A stretch of DNA of 18,809 nucleotides from Photorhabdus cinerea (GTDB lineage Bacteria > Pseudomonadota > Gammaproteobacteria > Enterobacterales > Enterobacteriaceae). The stretch spans positions 1 through 18,809 of the forward strand of contig NZ_PUJW01000039.1 in assembly GCF_011189575.1 (NCBI RefSeq), given 5' to 3'. Positions 614 through 13,818 of this stretch are shown here, piece by piece. The notes below the pieces were generated by a model. That model was not told the DNA's origin. It searched no databases and was given only the letters and a program-made list of their open reading frames with translations. A program made the translations under genes and the position numbers. Every line of letters starts with the position of its first letter. The first letter of the stretch is position 1.

Positions 614-1033
614 TTATAGCAACTCAAACGCCCGTTCGAACGTCTCCGGTGAATAGGGTTGCTGATTTGCGTTCTCCATCTTGATAATACCTTCAGCTAA
701 AGCGAACAAGGTTATCTTGTCTTGGGTAGATATACGCTCATCCGCAGAGACGCCCACCTTCTTAGCCGCAAACTGAATATAATTTTCCGTATTATTCTCG
801 TGGGGCGGTGCGTAACGATTGATAATCTCTCTGACTGTATTCAGTTTGTGCTTGCGTTGGTAGTTTTGCAGCAATTTGAACAACGCCCGGATACCATACT
901 CCGGCGACTCAAACCGGCAGAACCGAGGTTCAATCGTTGGATCAAGAGGTAATTGACCGAGCCAGTCGTTGAAACGGTTATAGTCAATATTGCCGGGATT
1001 ATTGTTTCGTATGCCCCTGCTTATTATACTCAT
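614..1033 (-). CDS. Probable endolysin (139 aa, GIRNNNPGNI motif family)
   Basis: It sits between the holin and the spanins, and its ATG overlaps the holin stop (ATGA). It is a soluble protein. I recall the RNNNPGNI motif from phage muralytic or virion-associated proteins, but the catalytic family is not established from the sequence alone. Confidence 0.6.
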   Translation of the reverse strand: MSIISRGIRNNNPGNIDYNRFNDWLGQLPLDPTIEPRFCRFESPEYGIRALFKLLQNYQRKHKLNTVREIINRYAPPHENNTENYIQFAAKKVGVSADERISTQDKITLFALAEGIIKMENANQQPYSPETFERAFELL

Positions 1034-1356
1034 TCTTTTATCCCCGCTTTATTACGCAAAGTCCCGCGCATTAATTGGCCGAAAAAATCCGTTCCCAGAT
1101 AGCCAATAATCACGCTGCCGATATAAGCCAGATCCGTACTCAGATTTAAGAAGACGAGCAAGTCACGAATAAACCATGCAATAAGTGCACACATCAGCGC
1201 GTCAATCATCGTCTTCCAGAACTTACCGCCGTTATATCGGCCTCTGAGGTAAGCCATTGTTGCAGCCAGTGCCGCCCCTAAACCTTGTTCTTTGACTGAT
1301 AACAGCCATAACCATAGCTGCATCCAGATGTCAGGCTGCTTGTCCATGAGTTTCAT
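1030..1356 (-). CDS. S: Class I holin, lambda S family, with a dual-start motif
   Basis: [69 protein letters not shown] aligns closely with lambda S ([23 protein letters not shown]...[12 protein letters not shown]...). A GGGGGTGG SD precedes M-K-L-M, with Met codons at 1356 and 1347. The track start at 1368 lies inside that SD. Confidence 0.9.
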   Translation of the reverse strand: [108 protein letters not shown]

Positions 1357-1476
1357 ATCCACCCCCATAAAATGGGCGTCCGTGGGGTGAACTATGTTAC
1401 CCCTGTGAGTTGTAGTTAATTAAAGACGCCAACCGCAACAAAGATTGGAGTGTTGAGACGTTGCGGCGGCGAAATG

Positions 1477-3814: not shown

Positions 3815-4630
3815 TTAAAAAGAAATAAATTCTCTCTTTGTTAATTCTGATAAAATATAATCAGCACATTCCTCCTCTTTAAAGCATTCACTTACTAACC
3901 GTTCAAACAATGGTTGATATTTGTCATAGCAGGTTGTTTTAGATATCCCTGTTAGTGGCTTTATTACTTCAAAGACTTCTGTAAATTTCAGTCTTGAATA
4001 TCCACGCCCTGAGCATTTAGGACATACTTTGTAAATCGGTACACTTTGCAACTTGGTCTGCTTTTCATCCAGAACTTGCCCACGTCCATTACAGCGACAA
4101 GAATGACTCACAGTACCCTTCCCTTTGCAAGACCTGCAAAGCACTCTACATGTTTCTTCTACCTCCCGAATTGAGGTAATAAAACGCTTAGGTTTTATGT
4201 TTAATGCCTTAGCAAGCATTCCTTCACTACTTCCGTATTTTGTAGTGAACTTACGAACGGAGATAAACCCACCTTCACAATCAGAACACGGCTTCTTGCT
4301 GGCGGCACTTCTCGCATAATCCTGAAATGCATAATTTGCGAGTAATTGCAGAACATTTTGCTTAACATTCTCATCAAGCTTATCAATGGCACTGTGTTTG
4401 TGAACCTGAGTCAGTGCATATTGATAGAGACTCTCCACCGCTTCATCTGAGCTATTGATCCCCTGTTTCGCCAAAAACAGTTCAATACCAAGCCTCGCTT
4501 TTGCGGACGCCAACCCTAGCGCGGCCATCACATCGGTAATTGAGAATGAATCAGTAGCAGTTGCGGCTGGAGAGTCACTAAACATGATCCCTTTGGGTGA
4601 AAAATACTTCGGTAGTAATTCAAGGTTCAT
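3815..4630 (-). CDS. Q: Late-gene antiterminator Q (long, zinc-finger type)
   Basis: The N-terminus MNLELLPKYFSPKG...ITDVMAA...LFLAK and ANYAFQDYARSAASK resemble phage-82-type Q proteins as recalled. It has four Cys pairs: CSDCEGG, CRSCKGKG, CRCNGRG and CPKCSGRG. The likely start is the ATG at 4630, after a GAGGTGG SD, because the track start at 4660 adds 10 implausible residues. Its position between the nin region and pR' is as expected. Confidence 0.85.
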   Translation of the reverse strand: MNLELLPKYFSPKGIMFSDSPAATATDSFSITDVMAALGLASAKARLGIELFLAKQGINSSDEAVESLYQYALTQVHKHSAIDKLDENVKQNVLQLLANYAFQDYARSAASKKPCSDCEGGFISVRKFTTKYGSSEGMLAKALNIKPKRFITSIREVEETCRVLCRSCKGKGTVSHSCRCNGRGQVLDEKQTKLQSVPIYKVCPKCSGRGYSRLKFTEVFEVIKPLTGISKTTCYDKYQPLFERLVSECFKEEECADYILSELTKREFISF

Positions 4631-4833
4631 TTTCCCACCTCTAATAAAACTGAATGACATTTGTCATACTTAGTTGAAAACATGACTGAGTGTTTTTTGC
4701 CCCTGACTCTCCGATCATGAATAACTTTCAGTGAACCATATTTGCATTGCAAAACAGCAAATGACCTGCCTGTGATTCCACTTCTGAAGCGAGCATCTTC
4801 TATCGCTGCTTCAATATCAGTGAAGATTGTCAT
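4627..4833 (-). CDS. Hypothetical nin-region protein (68 aa)
   Basis: An AGGAG SD lies 9 nt upstream. The stop overlaps the Q start (ATGA) and the start overlaps the ninG end, so it is packed within the operon. I recognise no family. Confidence 0.55.
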   Translation of the reverse strand: MTIFTDIEAAIEDARFRSGITGRSFAVLQCKYGSLKVIHDRRVRGKKHSVMFSTKYDKCHSVLLEVGK

Positions 4834-6381: not shown

Positions 6382-7338
6382 TCATCTCTGTAACTGCTCT
6401 TGAAATACTTTGGCACCATTGATCAGCATATCGTTGAAATCCCCGGCTTCGGGCCAACGAATGCTGACAAGTTCCACATCATTGTTACTCAGAATATTTT
6501 TATTACCACACTCAAACGCCGCAGCAAGCCCTGTCCCGTTACTGTCCCTGTCTGCGAAAATAATTAAGTGTTTCACTCCCTTGGGAGCGCGGAACTTCCG
6601 TAAAAATCCGGCATTCAGAGTTGACCAGGTGTTGCAGCCGTATATCTGTTTGCATGACAATGCTGTTTCTATCCCTTCTGCTATCCCCAAAGTTGAAGAG
6701 ACTGGAAACATGCGGATAGCAATGGAATTAGCAAAGTTCAGATAGTTATCTTCCTGCAATTTCAGCATCCGCTTATTACCGTCAAAATCCGCTTTTTTCT
6801 CTCCGTCTAGTACCGTTCTATGGAGATAACAGCCTGCCCCTTTATCATCCGTAGCAATTGACCAGATAGCCTGCTTATTCCCAAATGGCGTTTTTTCTTC
6901 CGTATTGAAACGAATATGGCCGGACGGTAATTCAAATATGCCGCGATTGAACAAGTAGTGTTGAGCGGCGGTATCGTTTAGCGGGGGTAGTGTTGAAAAT
7001 TTACTGATGACTTTTACACGGATTGTTTGAGTTTCTGGCTGTTGCTGCTTATCATGACCTCGTTTGTAGTTGTAACTGTTTCCTATTAGTGAATCAATTT
7101 CTCTTGCTAATGTCTTGAAATCTTTTCCTTGGGTTAGTTCTAGCAGCTTCCACCCATCACCGGCACCGCAACTACATATCCACGATCCGGTACCGTCCTT
7201 GTCATCGCATCGGTATTTTCCTTTTCGCTTACATGCTGGACACTCTCCTGCATAATGTTTCTTTCCTGTAACATTGGGTAAATCGTAGTATTCAAAAATT
7301 TCAGGCCACCGCCCTCTCACTGCTTCCACTGTTCGCAT
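6382..7338 (-). CDS. DNA primase (primase-helicase-type Zn ribbon plus Toprim domain)
   Basis: CPACKRKGKYRCDDKDGTGSWICSCGAGDGWKLLE matches the Prim_Zn_Ribbon pattern. The C-terminal IAEGIETALS and IIFADRDSNGTG are Toprim E and DxD motifs. The likely start is the ATG at 7338 (MRTVEAVRGRW), after an AGGAG SD. The track N-terminal extension is basic junk that overlaps the helicase gene. Confidence 0.85.
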   Translation of the reverse strand: MRTVEAVRGRWPEIFEYYDLPNVTGKKHYAGECPACKRKGKYRCDDKDGTGSWICSCGAGDGWKLLELTQGKDFKTLAREIDSLIGNSYNYKRGHDKQQQPETQTIRVKVISKFSTLPPLNDTAAQHYLFNRGIFELPSGHIRFNTEEKTPFGNKQAIWSIATDDKGAGCYLHRTVLDGEKKADFDGNKRMLKLQEDNYLNFANSIAIRMFPVSSTLGIAEGIETALSCKQIYGCNTWSTLNAGFLRKFRAPKGVKHLIIFADRDSNGTGLAAAFECGNKNILSNNDVELVSIRWPEAGDFNDMLINGAKVFQEQLQR

Positions 7339-8842
7339 TTTTCTGTTTCTCCTGCATCTTTGCCCACGCGATTTGTTTAGAACGAATGAAGTTGTAAACT
7401 TCCGGTGAGATTTCAATTAAGTGATCGCTTAAGCCGTGCGGCCAGACACCGAACTTTTTCTTGTATGTATGAGCGCACCAGCCATCGGAAATGGGTTTCC
7501 CCTGATTTTCCCGTTCACGCTGATAATATTTAATTTGTGACCACCAGCTTTGTTTCTCTTCCTTGCTGTAAATTCGCTCGTTCTTCCCTAATTTTTTCAG
7601 CCCGCGAGACTCATCAACATCAACGTTCTCACCAGCAAGCGGCTTGAAACCGCATTTCGGGCAAACATAGACGCCAGCCGGTTTCATGTAATGACAGCCA
7701 TGGCATTCTTTCGGGATTTTCTCTTGTTTGACTTTCTCGCTAAAACTTGATGAAGATTTCATGCCATCATTTTTGGATGGCAACTTGTCATACTCAATTT
7801 CATCAGGGAAGCCGAGAAGATGGACGCTGCCACTGTGATCGAATATCAAGCATTTATCTTTGCCCTTCGCTGTTCTCAACCCTCGCCCAAGGCATTGCAC
7901 CCATCTGATTTCTGATTTTGTAGGCCGGGCATAAATGATACAGCGCACGTCACTATCAAACCCGGCAACAAGTACACCGACATTGACGATGATTTTCGTC
8001 GCACCCTGTTCAAACCTGTTAATGATCAACTGCCGCTCATCATGTGGGGTTTCTGCTGTCATCACTTCGGTGTTAATACCAGACTTGTTAAACTCCATCG
8101 TGACATAGTTAGCGTGCTTAACATTCACACAAAAGCAGATTGTTGGCCGGTCCTCGCCGTTCTCCAGCCAGTTCCTGACGATATTGCCCACCAGCGTTGA
8201 ATCGCCCATGATCTGGGCTAGTTGCTCCTCGTTATAGTCATTACCAAAAGCCGCTAAACTTGTTGTTTTCACGCCGGTCAAATCGGGCCTGTCGGGCGCA
8301 TAGAACTCATATTTGCTCAGATCCCCAATGCTAATGAGTTCTTTCATCGTCGTTGGCTTAATCAACTTCTCGTAATATTTACCCATCCACGTCGCAAATG
8401 GCGTTCCTGATAAGCCAACAACTCGAATGTCGCTATCTCTGATAATTTCCAGTAACTTACGGCGCTTCATGTGGGCTTCATCAATGATCAGTAAGTCGAT
8501 GTTGTCTGGAAACTCACGACGAATAAGCGTGTCAGCCGAAGCAATTTGAATTAGTCGATCTGGGTCATGTAGTGGATGATTTCGCCAAACGTAGCTGATT
8601 TGATCTGCTGGCAGTCCGTATTCAACGAACCGGGTCGCAGTCTGATCGAGAAGTACTGTGTACGGGGCTACGAACATCACTCTCATACCATGACTGACAA
8701 ATCCGTCAGCAATAAACGCCGCTATTGCTGTTTTTCCAAAGCCTACACTGGCCGATAATAAAAACGTTCGATGTTTTTTCCAGTCATGACGAAGCATGTT
8801 AAGCGCGGTGACCTGCTTAACCTTCGGTGTTATATTTAACAT
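7301..8842 (-). CDS. SF2 DEAH-box helicase with a C-terminal zinc ribbon (replicative helicase of this module)
   Basis: It has Walker A SASVGFGKT, motif II IIDEAH, and helicase-C motifs (VGVLVAGFD, LGRGLR). It also has CHGCHYMKPAGVYVCPKCG. The likely start is the ATG at 8842 (MLNITPK), after an AAGGA SD. Confidence 0.9.
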   Translation of the reverse strand: MLNITPKVKQVTALNMLRHDWKKHRTFLLSASVGFGKTAIAAFIADGFVSHGMRVMFVAPYTVLLDQTATRFVEYGLPADQISYVWRNHPLHDPDRLIQIASADTLIRREFPDNIDLLIIDEAHMKRRKLLEIIRDSDIRVVGLSGTPFATWMGKYYEKLIKPTTMKELISIGDLSKYEFYAPDRPDLTGVKTTSLAAFGNDYNEEQLAQIMGDSTLVGNIVRNWLENGEDRPTICFCVNVKHANYVTMEFNKSGINTEVMTAETPHDERQLIINRFEQGATKIIVNVGVLVAGFDSDVRCIIYARPTKSEIRWVQCLGRGLRTAKGKDKCLIFDHSGSVHLLGFPDEIEYDKLPSKNDGMKSSSSFSEKVKQEKIPKECHGCHYMKPAGVYVCPKCGFKPLAGENVDVDESRGLKKLGKNERIYSKEEKQSWWSQIKYYQRERENQGKPISDGWCAHTYKKKFGVWPHGLSDHLIEISPEVYNFIRSKQIAWAKMQEKQKNANSGSSERAVA

Positions 8843-8913
8843 ATTGAATCCTTTGAAAGTCGGTTCGGGGTCGCTCGCCAAAGTTTCCGAATCGATTTTT
8901 ATTGATGATTTCG

Positions 8914-9384
8914 CTATGTTTCCTCTTCAAACGTAGCGGGAACAGTGAATGAATCTGTAGCAGCGCTGGCAGGGTTCAATCTGTATTTCACATTTCTTGC
9001 CCGGTTTGATTCAGCAAAAAACAACGCGGTATCTCGTAACTCCCGCTTGCCTTTCCAGAACCCATCCGGGTTTATCTCGTAAACTTTGCTGTACCTGCTG
9101 CGTATCATCCCTGACTCTTTCAGGGTTTTTATCGATCTGTACACCGCACTTTTTGACAAGCCGGTTTGTGATATGAGCGTTGATACATCGACCATCAGCG
9201 CCCCTGTCTCTTTGTCCATGTCCTTGATCATTTTTAAATACAAAATTATTGTTGCGTTATCTCTCTCTTGTGCACATTTAGTAATAAAATCAATACCTTT
9301 GTCGTATGCCTGAATGAATATATGGCCTTTAGTGTCATGATTGGGTATAATTTCAACATCGTGTATTTTTGACTGCTTAGTCAT
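8914..9384 (-). CDS. Winged-helix DNA-binding protein, probable replication initiator / origin-binding protein
   Basis: ISQTGLSKSAVYRSIKTLKESGMI is a clear wHTH. It is the first gene of the helicase-primase module and sits directly downstream of repeated 15-bp boxes. The function is inferred from position. The likely ATG is at 9384, because the track start is TTG. Confidence 0.5.
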   Translation of the reverse strand: MTKQSKIHDVEIIPNHDTKGHIFIQAYDKGIDFITKCAQERDNATIILYLKMIKDMDKETGALMVDVSTLISQTGLSKSAVYRSIKTLKESGMIRSRYSKVYEINPDGFWKGKRELRDTALFFAESNRARNVKYRLNPASAATDSFTVPATFEEET

Positions 9385-9430
9385 CACTTCACCCGCCAAA
9401 TTACTTATAACCCACTGTTTTTAAAGACTT

Positions 9431-10016: not shown

Positions 10017-10334
10017 TTATATTTGATTAGCCTCATCTGCTGTAACAGACGGGGCGCTTTCTCTTAAGTGAGATAGCATCTCTTGCAACGCTTTAGCTAT
10101 CTGTGCTGTTTCTTCTCCATGAATGATCACTTCGCTTACAGGGGTTTCAAACCCAATAGCAGCCAGTAACTTAGCGGCTTTAGTAACAAAGCCCGTCTCT
10201 TCTGCTTGCCAGCGGCTTATCTGTGATTGATGCACGCCAACCGCATCAGCAACATGCTTCGGACCGGTAACGATGATCCCCTTTCTTATTCGTGACTCGA
10301 TTTCTTTAGTTTTGCGTTCCATTGCGATATTCAT
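10017..10334 (-). CDS. cII: CII-like transcriptional activator
   Basis: HVADAVGVHQSQISRWQ parallels lambda CII TAEAVGVDKSQISRWK. The size and the position after cro/nutR are as expected. Confidence 0.8.
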   Translation of the reverse strand: MNIAMERKTKEIESRIRKGIIVTGPKHVADAVGVHQSQISRWQAEETGFVTKAAKLLAAIGFETPVSEVIIHGEETAQIAKALQEMLSHLRESAPSVTADEANQI

Positions 10335-10476: not shown

Positions 10477-10683
10477 CTATACCGGCTCGCGCGGTTTATT
10501 TACCTGGCTTGGAAACGGCTTAATTTCCTCAGCTTCAATTCGCCCATCACTGTGAACAATTACAGTGATCTTTCTCCCAATAGAGAGAGCTTTGCTAATT
10601 GCGCTTTGGTTAATTCCAAATAAAGCAGCTGTTTCTTCTTGACCATTTTTGGATACAAAATCTGATAACGGAATTCTGTCCAT
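10477..10683 (-). CDS. cro: Cro repressor
   Basis: FGINQSAISKALSIGRKITVIVHSDGRIEAEEIKPFPS closely matches lambda Cro ([38 protein letters not shown]). Confidence 0.9.
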   Translation of the reverse strand: MDRIPLSDFVSKNGQEETAALFGINQSAISKALSIGRKITVIVHSDGRIEAEEIKPFPSQVNKPREPV

Positions 10684-10710: not shown

Positions 10711-10786
10711 AGTATCACTCATAGTAATAAAATAGTCAACACTAACGGTGATTTGTAATTATGACTTTAAGTTATAAAATCTAACG
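10711..10786. promoter_or_regulatory. OR region: two lambda-like operators, pR (leftward) and a probable pRM (rightward, leaderless cI)
   Basis: The operators are TATCACTCATAGTAATA (10713-10729) and CAACACTAACGGTGATT (10737-10753). pR on the minus strand is TTGACT (10739-10734), 17 nt, then GATACT (10716-10711). A plus-strand TATAAA at 10773-10778 lies 8 nt before the cI ATG with no SD, which suggests a leaderless transcript as in lambda pRM. Confidence 0.8.
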
Positions 10787-11245
10787 ATGAAGAAGATTCC
10801 ATTGACAGATAGTCAAATTGATGACGCACAACGTCTCAAAGCGATTTATGAAGCGAAGAAAAAAACATTGGGGCTTTCCCAAGATATATTGGCTGAAAAA
10901 ATCGGAATGGGTCAAAGTGGTGTCACGCAATTATTAAATGCAAAAAATGCAATAAATGTATTCCATGCAGCAAAGTTCGCTAAAGTTCTTGAAATCAATA
11001 TTGATGACTTTAGCCCCTCTCTTGCTGCTGAAATCGCAGAATTGGCAAAATATATCGTTGATAAAAATGGAAAGAATGAGATATCTAAACGTTTAACTCA
11101 AGAACAAGAAGAATTGCTTAATATTTATCATGGACTGCCAAGCGAAGAAGCTCAAAAATTTCTACGCGAGATGAAAGCCAAGAAAGCACATTTTGATAAA
11201 ATTTTTGAAGAGATGCTTGCGAAGAGGGGCAGTAAAGCAGGTTAA
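10787..11245 (+). CDS. cI: CI-like repressor: lambda-CI-type HTH domain with a short helical tail and no S24 peptidase domain
   Basis: The first ~90 aa (PLTDSQIDDAQRLKAIYEAKKKTLGLSQDILAEKIGMGQSGVTQLLNAKNAINVFHAAKFAKVLEINIDDFSPSLAAEI) align with the lambda CI NTD. The protein ends at 152 aa, with no Ala-Gly site or Ser/Lys dyad region. Confidence 0.9.
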   Translation: MKKIPLTDSQIDDAQRLKAIYEAKKKTLGLSQDILAEKIGMGQSGVTQLLNAKNAINVFHAAKFAKVLEINIDDFSPSLAAEIAELAKYIVDKNGKNEISKRLTQEQEELLNIYHGLPSEEAQKFLREMKAKKAHFDKIFEEMLAKRGSKAG

Positions 11246-11442
11246 TGATATAAATTTCAAGTGCAAATATTAACGTGTGAAATTGTTACATTTGTCATGT
11301 TTTTAATAATCAAAGTGTTTCCCGTTCGCGGGGATAATGGCTGTCGAGACTATGCAGCCGCATAAATAGCCGCAAGGTATCCATTAACAAGAAACCAAGT
11401 GTGAGATAAAAACCAATTTATTCAATCCAATAGGAATACTTG

Positions 11443-12294
11443 ATGAAAATAAACTTTTATGCGATCTATTCTCAAAATCAGCGCACTAAAGACAAGTACA
11501 AGTTAGATCTGCTAGATTTACTGAATAAAAAAATTATTGAGCCAAAATCTCATGCTTTAGATTGTGAAACTCACCATCTTTATTTACATCGTATTGATGA
11601 CAAAACGTTTCTTTTTACAAAAACCAGTGATAGCGAGTTAATAAAAAAAATTAACAGATCAAATTCCTCTGTGAAAGACATCAGGGACAGCCTTACTGAA
11701 GACGAATCATTAGGGTTTCCCTCTTTTATCTTCATTGACGGGAATGTGATGGGGTTTGCCTCTTCAATGTACGGCCCTAGAACAAGGGAACTAGCTGAAT
11801 TCGTAAAAAATAAAAACCTTATTCAGCATAAACACCACTATATGGTAGCAGAGCCATTGATGAGAGATATGTCAAAAGATGATGCTCTTAAAATGGATTT
11901 CATTGGTAGGACCACACTAAGAGTTGAGACAGGTAACAGAATATGTAGTGAAATACTAAAAGGGTTAGGCTGCAAAAAAATAGAAGAAGAATTACTCGAC
12001 GGGTTGGAAATTATTATAAAACCCAAAAGAAACAAAGATATAAAAGGCATAACTAAAGATATTATAACCAATAAAAACAATTCATTCAGTGATGTTCATA
12101 TCAAAGCCAGAGAAGAGGCGGCAGATATACTAACTGAGTACTATCTCTCTGGCAAAGGACATCTAGGCGCCAACTTATACAAAGCATCCAATGCAGATGT
12201 TGCTGAAGAAATCCAGTATTGCTTCATTCGAATGAAGACATCTATAATAAAAAGTTTTGATCAAACGTTAGGTGATGAGCTGAAACAAACTTAA
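11443..12294 (+). CDS. rexA: RexA homologue
   Basis: The ATG is at 11443 (the track starts at a TTG). HLYLHRIDDKTFLFTKTSDSELIKKINRSNSSVKDIRDSLTEDESLGFPSFIF, FIGRTT, IKPK and DILTEYYLSGKGHL parallel lambda RexA as recalled (YLYIHKIDGKTFLFTKTNDKSLVQKINRSKASVEDIKNSLADDESLGFPSFLF...). It lies downstream of cI, as in lambda. Confidence 0.85.
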   Translation: MKINFYAIYSQNQRTKDKYKLDLLDLLNKKIIEPKSHALDCETHHLYLHRIDDKTFLFTKTSDSELIKKINRSNSSVKDIRDSLTEDESLGFPSFIFIDGNVMGFASSMYGPRTRELAEFVKNKNLIQHKHHYMVAEPLMRDMSKDDALKMDFIGRTTLRVETGNRICSEILKGLGCKKIEEELLDGLEIIIKPKRNKDIKGITKDIITNKNNSFSDVHIKAREEAADILTEYYLSGKGHLGANLYKASNADVAEEIQYCFIRMKTSIIKSFDQTLGDELKQT

Positions 12295-12306
12295 ATAGGG
12301 GGTTAC

Positions 12307-12744
12307 ATGAGTAGAAAACACAAGGTTAGACTAGCCTTTATCCTCATATTAGTACCCTACTTATTAGTGATCTTGGCTTGCTGCGTGTTTAAGCATTACC
12401 AGCCCGAGCTTTCATTCACAAAGAATAGAGAGGTGCTAGGCGCGGCAATGAGTTCTTATGCTGGAACTACAATAGCAATACTGATAGCAGCCCTGACGTT
12501 TGTTATTGGGCTAAGGGGAAGAAATATAGCTAAACTTGAACGCTATGGATACATGACATCTGTAATTATTATGTATTCACTTAGTTTTGTTGAGCTTGGT
12601 ATTCTTTTCTTTACAGGAGTGCTTTTGATGTCGAATCTGGAAGGGATACCTCTGTCATCGATAGCTATAATCATAGCCGCCTCATCCTTCATGCATATCT
12701 GCTTTCTACTAATTCAACTATTTAATTTCTCTAAAGAACAATAA
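12307..12744 (+). CDS. rexB: RexB homologue (4-TM membrane protein)
   Basis: SSYAGTTIAILIAALTFVIGLRGRNIAKLERYGYMTSVIIMYSLSFVELGILFF parallels lambda RexB (SSYAGTMIAILIAALTFLIGSRTRRLAKIREYGYMTSVVIVYALSFVELGALFF). It is 145 aa with four hydrophobic helices. Confidence 0.85.
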   Translation: MSRKHKVRLAFILILVPYLLVILACCVFKHYQPELSFTKNREVLGAAMSSYAGTTIAILIAALTFVIGLRGRNIAKLERYGYMTSVIIMYSLSFVELGILFFTGVLLMSNLEGIPLSSIAIIIAASSFMHICFLLIQLFNFSKEQ

Positions 12745-12752
12745 ATTCTAAT

Positions 12753-12777
12753 AAGCCACCCACCCGGTGGCTTTTTT
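12753..12777 (+). terminator. Rho-independent terminator of the cI-rexA-rexB operon
   Basis: AAGCCACC-CACCC-GGTGGCTT followed by TTTTT. Confidence 0.8.
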
Positions 12778-12857
12778 ATGCCCTCCCCCGCCAAATCAGC
12801 TCAAATCTCCCCATCCAGAAAAATTTTTTCAAAATAAATTGTCTGTAAAAACAAGGT

Positions 12858-12923
12858 TATCACTCATAGTAATAAAATATTATCACCGTTAGTGTTGACT
12901 ATTTTATTACTATGAGTGATACT
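12858..12923 (+). promoter_or_regulatory. OL region with three operators and pL (rightward)
   Basis: The operators are TATCACTCATAGTAATA (12858-12874), TATCACCGTTAGTGTTG (12881-12897, close to lambda OL1 TATCACCGCCAGTGGTA) and TATTACTATGAGTGATA (12905-12921). pL is TTGACT (12895-12900), 17 nt, then GATACT (12918-12923). GATACT is also the lambda pL -10. Confidence 0.85.
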
Positions 12924-13056: not shown

Positions 13057-13368
13057 ATGAACGCATACAACAACGGCGCATACCACAACAACGCATACCA
13101 CAACGGCGCATACTACAGCTACACATACAACAACAAAGCATACTACAACAACACATACTACGACAACGCAACAATGTACGTAGATAAATTCACGGGTAAG
13201 CAATATCTCGTACAAAACCGCAACAGCGGAAGAGTTACACAGTATGCACCAAACGTACAGGTGTATCACGACTGGTCATGTGAAGATGGCGGCAAATTAT
13301 GCACTACAGTTTTCAAAAGCCGCAAAGAACTAAATAGCTGGCTTCGCATGATGGGATTCAAGAACTAA
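13057..13368 (+). CDS. Hypothetical protein with an N-terminal Asn/Tyr-rich pentapeptide repeat region (103 aa)
   Basis: A GAGGA SD lies 9 nt upstream. The N-terminus is MNAY-NNGAY-HNNAY-HNGAY-YSYTY-NNKAY-YNNTY-YDNATMY, followed by a non-repetitive 60-aa C-terminus (DKFTGKQYLVQNRNSGRVTQYAPNVQVYHDWSCEDGGKLCTTVFKSRKELNSWLRMMGFKN). It is the first ORF after pL. Confidence 0.55.
   Translation: MNAYNNGAYHNNAYHNGAYYSYTYNNKAYYNNTYYDNATMYVDKFTGKQYLVQNRNSGRVTQYAPNVQVYHDWSCEDGGKLCTTVFKSRKELNSWLRMMGFKN
13060..13179 (+). repeat. About eight tandem 15-bp degenerate repeats (GCATAC[C/T]ACAAC[A/G][A/G]C type)
   Basis: It can be read directly: aacgcatacaacaac ggcgcataccacaac aacgcataccacaac ggcgcatactacagc tacacatacaacaac aaagcatactacaac aacacatactacgac. 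The region is CA-rich and in frame with the CDS. Confidence 0.8.
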
Positions 13369-13382
13369 CTAAAAGGAAGTTC

Positions 13383-13430
13383 CGCTCTTTAACAATATGA
13401 CGATTAATCGCTCTGAATAAGTGTTAGAGC
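13383..13430 (+). promoter_or_regulatory. nutL: boxA plus a downstream hairpin (boxB candidate)
   Basis: CGCTCTTTAACAA lies at 13383-13395 (consensus boxA). After 14 nt there is a hairpin, GCTCTGA-ATAAGTG-TTAGAGC (13410-13430, 7 bp including one G-U pair). The spacing matches nutR. Confidence 0.7.
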
Positions 13431-13494: not shown

Positions 13495-13818
13495 ATGGCT
13501 ACTTCAAACCGTCCTGTTCTCACTCTTAAGAGTCTGGCAGACAGCGAAATTAAACCAACTGTCACTGTTAAGCCCAAAAAAGACAATGCAAAGTCTCGTC
13601 GCCTGGCAAAACAAATGGCTTTTTGGGATAAAAAACGCGCTGAGTATGAAGCAAAACCCAGAAGTCGTTCAGTTGATGAAATTATCGATTCAATTATTAA
13701 GCCAGTCGATGAAACTGATGTCATTGCAAATCTGATTATTGCTTTAAAGAGTAATGATAAGCCGGAAATTACGGGTAGTCGCTGTTTGCAAGATGCTTGG
13801 CTTTATTCAGTTAGATAA
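13495..13818 (+). CDS. N-like antitermination protein candidate (107 aa)
   Basis: It is the first gene after nutL, with a strong GAGGAGG SD, and is 107 aa like lambda N. The basic segment KPKKDNAKSRRLAKQMAFWDKKRAEYEAKPRSRS resembles arginine-rich motifs of P22 N (NAKTRRHERRRK), phi21 N (TAKSRYKARR) and lambda N (RRAEKQAQWK). Confidence 0.5.
   Translation: MATSNRPVLTLKSLADSEIKPTVTVKPKKDNAKSRRLAKQMAFWDKKRAEYEAKPRSRSVDEIIDSIIKPVDETDVIANLIIALKSNDKPEITGSRCLQDAWLYSVR

Follow-up and report, generated by a model that had tools for sequence, protein, structure and literature searches.

The contig NZ_PUJW01000039.1 of Photorhabdus cinerea (RefSeq assembly GCF_011189575.1) carries two genes behind a prophage repressor gene, cI, and the question raised by this locus is whether they form an intact counterpart of the rexA-rexB exclusion module of phage lambda and how far they depart from the Rex systems already known. 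The window analyzed here is the entire contig of 18.8 kb (18,809 nucleotides, nt). The pair is very probably an intact orthologue of lambda rexA-rexB, carried as a discrete cargo cassette of ~1.46 kb in a lambdoid immunity region. Both reading frames, of 283 and 145 residues (Table 1), are located exactly where a preliminary description of this DNA had placed them. That description had further claimed homology to lambda RexA and RexB, a position behind a repressor of different architecture, and the status of a distant natural variant; the sequence tests agreed with the first two claims, and the third was found to be overstated.

The identity of RexA was assessed by profile, pairwise and structural comparison. 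RexA matched Pfam PF15969 with 204.7 bits (cut-off 25; E 2e-60) over profile positions 1-234 of 235, the PADLOC RexA model with 5e-106 over 267 of 267 positions, and PHROG 12654, named 'RexA-like exclusion protein', with 2e-110. Pairwise BLASTP against lambda RexA gave 49% identity and 70% similarity over the full length (E 5e-98), and phmmer aligned residues 1-277 with PDB 8TWQ (lambda RexA) at E 2.7e-84. The same entry was the top PDB match of the AlphaFold2 model of RexA (E 6e-23, probability 1.00, TM 0.55), with RdgC (2owl) at rank 12, and the two-domain fold, consisting of a globular and a dimerisation domain, is supported by both the phmmer match and the model. The ATG of rexA is at 11443, with a TTG one codon earlier at 11440.

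The residues tested experimentally in lambda RexA were then located in the window protein. In lambda, the R219A/K221A substitutions abolish DNA binding and T4 rII exclusion, deletion of the swivel loop (residues 239-244) impairs both activities, and D215 forms a hydrogen bond with R261 and controls the closed-to-open transition (PMC11077077). The basic pair is represented by K221/R223 in the window RexA, and these two columns contain only K or R across 32 family members. The swivel loop (241-246) is equal in length to that of lambda, the interdomain contact is kept as D217/R263, and K143 and C258 of lambda correspond to K145 and C260. The hinge residue G140, at which both G140A and G140P are neutral in lambda (PMC11077077), is replaced by D142; Asp is the majority residue at this position in the family. 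All 24 family-invariant columns are retained in the window RexA, and by analogy with the lambda protein, dimerisation and sequence-nonspecific DNA binding are proposed for it as well.

RexB matched Pfam PF15968 with 160.3 bits (cut-off 27; E 5e-47), PADLOC RexB with 3.9e-51 and PHROG 14878 with 1.6e-55, and BLASTP against lambda RexB gave 53% identity and 79% similarity over 142 residues (E 2e-55). The PADLOC models of RexA and RexB were both matched over nearly their whole length, and the homology of both proteins to those of lambda is far beyond chance. Four transmembrane helices had been predicted for RexB, and hydropathy analysis identified four hydrophobic segments (9-27, 51-69, 86-104 and 118-136) co-linear with those of lambda RexB; the AlphaFold2 model likewise consists of four long helices (3-31, 41-72, 82-108 and 116-142) at a predicted local distance difference test (pLDDT) score of 79. 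Of the columns invariant across 28 homologues, RexB retains 30 of 30, among them E96 in helix three and H130 and Q137 in helix four. The counterpart of E96 in lambda RexB is the acidic third-helix residue for which a role as a proton sink was proposed (bioRxiv 10.1101/2021.04.19.439022).

Many RexB homologues (P0232-P0255) bear the NCBI product name 'biopolymer transporter ExbB'. A relationship of RexB to ExbB, TolQ or MotA was rejected, as neither sequence nor fold searches supported it. The Pfam scan of RexB returned the RexB family only and NCBIfam returned nothing; phmmer against PDB sequences gave no match, and the best Foldseek match of the RexB model had an E of 0.55, with ExbB, TolQ and MotA chains absent among the 50 matches listed.

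The divergence of the pair was examined by searches of large protein collections. A word-based search of a collection of 5.8 billion proteins retrieved 29 RexA clusters and 34 RexB clusters, in which the window proteins were singletons. A profile search of 1.84 billion representatives (50% clustering) recovered 273 RexA-like clusters at E <= 1e-3, of which ~4 make up the lambda-type group; the remainder are proteins of ~310 residues at ~30% identity or below. In a maximum-likelihood tree, the window RexA branched as a separate lineage from a polytomy at the base of the lambda-type clade, on a short terminal branch (0.28). By these comparisons, the window pair is a mid-range member of a tight lambda-type clade and not a distant variant, which is where the earlier claim fails: at 49% and 53% identity to lambda, the pair lies inside a compact group beside which ~270 clusters are far more divergent. 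Far more divergent Rex-like pairs, from actinophages and from Pseudomonas putida, have already been characterized (PMC11077077, PMC12894663), and therefore the window pair is not informative as a distant variant.

The closest relatives of both RexA and RexB are found in Xenorhabdus. Within the genus, RexA was present in one of 15 species genomes, that of the window, and a RexA above cut-off was found in 3 of the 401 sampled genomes of the order. A seemingly broad spread of RexA over Shewanella, Kitasatospora, Capnocytophaga, Bacillaceae and others was rejected, the loci concerned being lambda DNA of laboratory origin that contaminates the assemblies: where covered by the contig, RexA, RexB, Cro and N are 100% identical to lambda, CI is 99.2% identical, and several of the contigs measure ~48.4-48.5 kb. 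The contaminated loci in our set are L006-L017, L021 and L023-L029, and include assemblies of Chromatium, Pseudomonas, Neobacillus and Bradyrhizobium.

Decayed rexA copies do occur in the family: the gene is frameshifted in X. budapestensis (L020:2004-2842) and split by an insertion of ~1.1 kb in Symbiopectobacterium (L022:4001-5940). These copies, together with the fact that the prophage is seen only on an 18.8-kb contig, would fit the view that the window genes are likewise decaying, non-functional remnants. Against this view, neither frame is interrupted or shortened, each gene is preceded by a ribosome-binding site, all family-invariant columns of the two proteins are kept, and the terminal branch of the window RexA is short. 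Decay is hardly credible as an explanation of this pair.

The extent of the rexAB unit became apparent from comparison with a prophage of Photorhabdus thracensis (GCA_020881405.1, locus L030), whose CI is 93% identical to that of the window and whose Cro, CII, pL and N layout is alike. DNA identity between the two prophages runs 63 nt beyond the cI stop codon at 95%, stops at 11308 and restarts in the T-tract of the terminator at ~12769. The junctions at ~11308/11309 on the left and ~12768/12769 on the right delimit a cassette of ~1.46 kb (~11309-12768) that comprises the rexA leader, rexA, rexB and the terminator stem. In P. thracensis, the corresponding slot (L030:4460-5380) holds two unrelated genes encoding 133 and 158 residues and a different terminator stem. 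No Pfam match is on record and no convincing PADLOC match was obtained for these two proteins; the only PHROGs they match are of unknown function. The P. thracensis slot pair is regarded as a candidate alternative exclusion cargo. The slot is filled differently again in a prophage of Xenorhabdus bovienii whose CI is 71% identical to that of the window. Other rexAB copies follow repressors with helix-turn-helix and S24 domains in Morganella, Izhakiella and Siccibacter, and further copies lie away from any CI gene in X. bovienii (L037) and Xenorhabdus TCT-1 (L018). The differing slot fillings and the varied locations of rexAB therefore indicate that rexAB behaves like a mobile cargo of the slot between cI and the terminator tIMM.

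A hairpin at the left edge of the cassette, GTGTTTCCCGTTCGCGGGGATAA (11315-11337), was considered as a solitary type I-E clustered regularly interspaced short palindromic repeat (CRISPR) unit, and this was rejected as unsupported though not disproved. With a profile built from nine repeats of the host arrays, the site reached 9.2 bits, for a genome-wide E of 8.6, and many chance matches scored equally well; a hand-made regular expression for the repeat matched only the array and this prophage site, and no such CRISPR-like unit was present at the other rex loci. The host genome itself encodes Cas6e (contig C12, 85603-86268) and contains degenerate type I-E arrays (C12:84400-85400, C2:86640-87010 and C9:41810-41920) and type I-F arrays on contigs C11, C58 and C61.

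The control region of the locus follows lambda in its arrangement. The gene order OR, cI, rexA, rexB, terminator, OL/pL, nutL (boxA) and N is that of lambda, and the three OR operators have start-to-start spacings of 24 and 23 bp, equal to those of lambda OR1-OR2-OR3. The OR and OL regions are joined by a 68-nt inverted repeat. As in lambda, cI is probably transcribed into a leaderless mRNA, because 6 nt separate the end of the pRM-like promoter from the cI ATG and no Shine-Dalgarno sequence precedes the gene. Between rexA and rexB lies a gap of 12 nt, and a strong predicted terminator starts 9 nt past rexB. In the 197-nt spacer between cI and rexA, no intrinsic terminator was predicted and folding was no better than that of shuffled sequence (z -0.71); Rfam gave no matches in the window. 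The rexA and rexB genes of lambda belong to the pRM operon (bioRxiv 10.1101/2021.04.19.439022), and from the shared strand, the terminator-free spacer and the strong terminator after rexB we infer that cI and rexAB are co-transcribed here. An additional rexB transcript may arise from a candidate pLIT-like promoter in the 3' end of rexA. [quoted passage not shown] Where the window has TTGCTT-18-TATAAT, the aligned lambda sequence is TTGCTA-18-TATACT, and that of X. bovienii is TTGTTT-18-TATAAT. The resemblance consists of hexamers at an aligned position, and their conservation could reflect coding constraint.

An arrangement in which rexAB is an autonomous moron outside the cI operon, transcribed from the promoter-like site at 11283-11310 or from a promoter internal to the cassette, would account for the long spacer. 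It would also account for the position of the TTGTTA-16-AATAAT site right at the conserved flank by the cargo slot, a flank that is 95% identical beside different cargo, and for the leader and terminator that the cassette carries of its own. However, the site scored 9 of 12 in the consensus scan, which found 11 sites compared with a mean of 10.7 in shuffled sequence; no terminator separates cI from rexA, so that read-through from pRM is expected regardless; and the lambda homologues are part of the pRM operon. Autonomous expression is thus considered unlikely.

The repressor itself (152 residues) combines parts of different origin. CI residues 2-88 resemble the N-terminal domain of lambda CI (PDB 1lli, E 1e-27), with ~56% identity over residues 2-86 by tblastn, and residues 97-148 resemble the C-terminus of DicA (NCBIfam PRK09706 positions 79-130, 1.6e-11, under the whole-protein cut-off). 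No linker cleavage site and no S24 peptidase domain were found in CI by Pfam and by alignment to lambda CI. Truncation of the gene to a pseudogene was rejected, since the C-terminal part matches that of DicA and homologues of 150-160 residues exist; in the search made, full-length homologues (56-93% identical) occurred in Photorhabdus and Xenorhabdus only, and therefore the architecture is taken as genuine. By its domain matches, CI is a natural chimera in which an N-terminal DNA-binding domain of the lambda type is followed by a short C-terminal part resembling that of DicA, and induction presumably proceeds via an antirepressor or another route. The operators are lambda-like, with TATCAC half-sites at OR and OL, and the OR spacing is exactly that of lambda although the cooperativity domain of CI has been replaced.

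This repressor bears on the possibility that rexAB serves mainly the prophage's own decision between lysogeny and lysis, with exclusion either incidental or lacking in this host; RexA would then stabilize the lytic state, and RexB would antagonize the effect of RexA or stabilize the replication initiator. Lambda RexA binds both CI and DNA and needs no RexB to bias the switch, and for lambda RexB interactions with CI and with the O protein were described (bioRxiv 10.1101/2021.04.19.439022; PMC11077077); lambda-like operators, Cro (Pfam 4e-24) and a CI N-terminal domain are all present at the locus. In contrast, the P. thracensis immunity region with its 93%-identical CI exists without rexAB and with unrelated cargo in the slot, and rexAB is therefore dispensable for the switch. 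Other rexAB copies stand away from CI genes (X. bovienii L037 and Xenorhabdus TCT-1 L018), and the C-terminal domain of CI proposed to contact RexA is replaced here. A function mainly in the switch is accordingly improbable. A related but distinct possibility arises from the pairing of an orthologous RexA with a CI that has the lambda DNA-binding domain and operator geometry and an unrelated, non-cleavable C-terminus: the link between RexA and the switch may have been altered or lost. This is put forward tentatively and is unlikely.

For the favored reading, an intact lambda-type exclusion module, a working mechanism was modelled on the RexAB systems of lambda and P. putida (PMC11077077, PMC12894663). 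In the lysogen, rexAB would be transcribed together with cI from the pRM-like promoter up to the tIMM-like terminator. RexA would form dimers in the cytoplasm, adopt an RdgC-like fold and bind DNA irrespective of its sequence; it would sense some event of superinfection and then act on RexB. RexB would reside in the inner membrane as a four-helix protein with the invariant acidic residue in its third helix, and once activated would compromise membrane potential or permeability. The infected cell would then cease to support phage growth, as in abortive infection. RexA may in addition bias the CI/Cro switch, as it does in lambda.

Several points weigh against this reading. We know of no T4 rII-like target phage for the host. 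The spacer between cI and rexA measures 197 nt compared with 112 nt in lambda, and the promoter-like site within it (11283-11310) could provide rexAB with a promoter of its own. The dimerisation domain (residues 150-236) has a pLDDT below 50 in the RexA monomer model. The linked CI lacks the C-terminal domain that would contact RexA: in lambda, the contact between RexA and CI was proposed to occur via the C-terminal domains of both proteins (bioRxiv 10.1101/2021.04.19.439022), and what the lambda model says on modulation of the switch may not apply to this locus.

Compared with known systems, the window pair is closest in organization to lambda itself. Lengths (279 and 144 residues in lambda), full-length alignment, gene order, position between OR and OL, a terminator straight after rexB, four transmembrane helices in RexB with an acidic residue in the third, and equivalents of RexA D215, R261, R219 and K221 are all shared. 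The two systems differ at about half of their residues, at Gly140 (Asp in the window), in the length of the spacer and in the S24 autocleavage domain of CI, which the window CI does not have; the window host is Photorhabdus-like with 42% GC. The closest pair found was rexA-rexB of X. bovienii (GCA_000736555.1, HG427527.1, L037), with 60% identity in RexA and 69% in RexB. This pair, from the sister genus, is part of a prophage remnant, where its neighbors are an integrase fragment and a tail-fibre gene and not a repressor. The Rex-like systems of actinophages and P. putida also consist of two genes, one for a DNA-binding dimer folded like RexA and one for a membrane effector with four helices; they are often located near an immunity repressor and confer protection of the abortive-infection type (PMC12894663, PMC11077077). 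They are detectable by profile or structure only and stand much farther from lambda than the window pair does.

The features of the window are compiled in Table 1. The contig bears the early region of a lambdoid prophage, in an orientation reversed relative to the usual lambda map, and belongs to a genome of 4.9 Mb with 42.3% GC; its CI, RexA and RexB proteins have their nearest homologues in Photorhabdus and Xenorhabdus. The rexAB genes had been described as lying in DNA richer in AT than the replication genes. This holds for the comparison made (rexA 34.5% and rexB 38.4% GC, compared with 43.9% in the primase gene and 46.2% in the helicase gene), but the AT-richness is not specific to rexAB, as cI has 35.9% GC and most of the pL arm is as AT-rich as rexAB.

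Table 1. Features of the 18,809-nt window. Positions are those of the window; promoters are given as hexamer-spacer-hexamer.
Feature	Position	Strand	Remarks
Endolysin and holin genes	614-1368	-	
Q	3815-4660	-	
NinG and NinB genes		-	
Primase gene	6382-7416	-	
Helicase gene	7301-8881	-	
O-like gene	8914-9399	-	
cII	10017-10334	-	
cro	10477-10683	-	Pfam Cro 4e-24
OR operators	10713-10729, 10737-10753, 10760-10776		Three, 17 bp each, lambda-like
pR-like promoter	10739-10711	-	TTGACT-17-GATACT; overlapped by OR operators
pRM-like promoter	10753-10780	+	TTGTAA-16-TAAAAT; consensus scan
cI	10787-11245	+	152 residues
cI-distal flank	11246-11308	+	Holds promoter-like TTGTTA-16-AATAAT, 11283-11310
rexA leader	11309-11442	+	Cassette-specific; small GC hairpin with UUCG loop, 11321-11333
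rexA ribosome-binding site	11428-11432	+	AGGAA
rexA	11443-12294	+	283 residues; predicted cytoplasmic DNA-binding dimer, sensor component
Candidate pLIT-like internal promoter	12219-12248	+	TTGCTT-18-TATAAT; 3' end of rexA
rexB ribosome-binding site	12296-12300	+	GGGGG
rexB	12307-12744	+	145 residues; predicted inner-membrane protein with four transmembrane helices, effector
Intrinsic terminator, tIMM equivalent	12753-12779	+	8-bp stem with 5 GC pairs, then T-run
OL operators	12858-12874, 12881-12897, 12905-12921		
pL-like promoter	12895-12923	+	TTGACT-17-GATACT; same hexamers as the pR-like promoter
Extra open reading frame	13057-13368	+	103 residues
N-like gene	13495-13818	+	
Recombination genes		+	

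The extra open reading frame of 103 codons sits between pL and boxA (CGCTCTTTAACAA, 13383-13395) and opens with seven 15-nt tandem repeats encoding Asn/Tyr-rich pentapeptides; it had no match in PHROG or PADLOC. Segments of the pL leader and nut region of the window recur on three other contigs of the genome (C43, C52 and C60) with 80-92% identity, and several related lambdoid prophages are probably present in the same genome.

The practical value of the locus is modest. It adds one more intact RexAB sequence of the lambda type, a lineage represented by a singleton and, within the 15 species genomes of the genus, the sole case, and helps to define the invariant residues of the family (24 in RexA; 30 in RexB, including E96, H130 and Q137 in the membrane helices). 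No new mechanism is opened. The pair joins the known lambda-type family, and experiments have already been carried out on Rex-like systems that diverge much more. The clean cassette and the near-isogenic immunity region with other cargo mark the interval between cI and tIMM as a site at which accessory or defence genes are swapped.

The pairing of RexAB with a chimeric CI is the only feature of the locus able to teach something new. A non-cleavable, chimeric CI beside rexAB constitutes a natural test of whether the interplay of RexA and CI needs the C-terminal domain of CI, and the sister prophage with the same immunity region minus rexAB would provide a built-in control. If RexA still modulates the switch, it would do so via the CI N-terminal domain, via DNA or via a newly evolved contact; if it no longer does, the locus would represent a natural separation of function, with defence retained without control of the switch.

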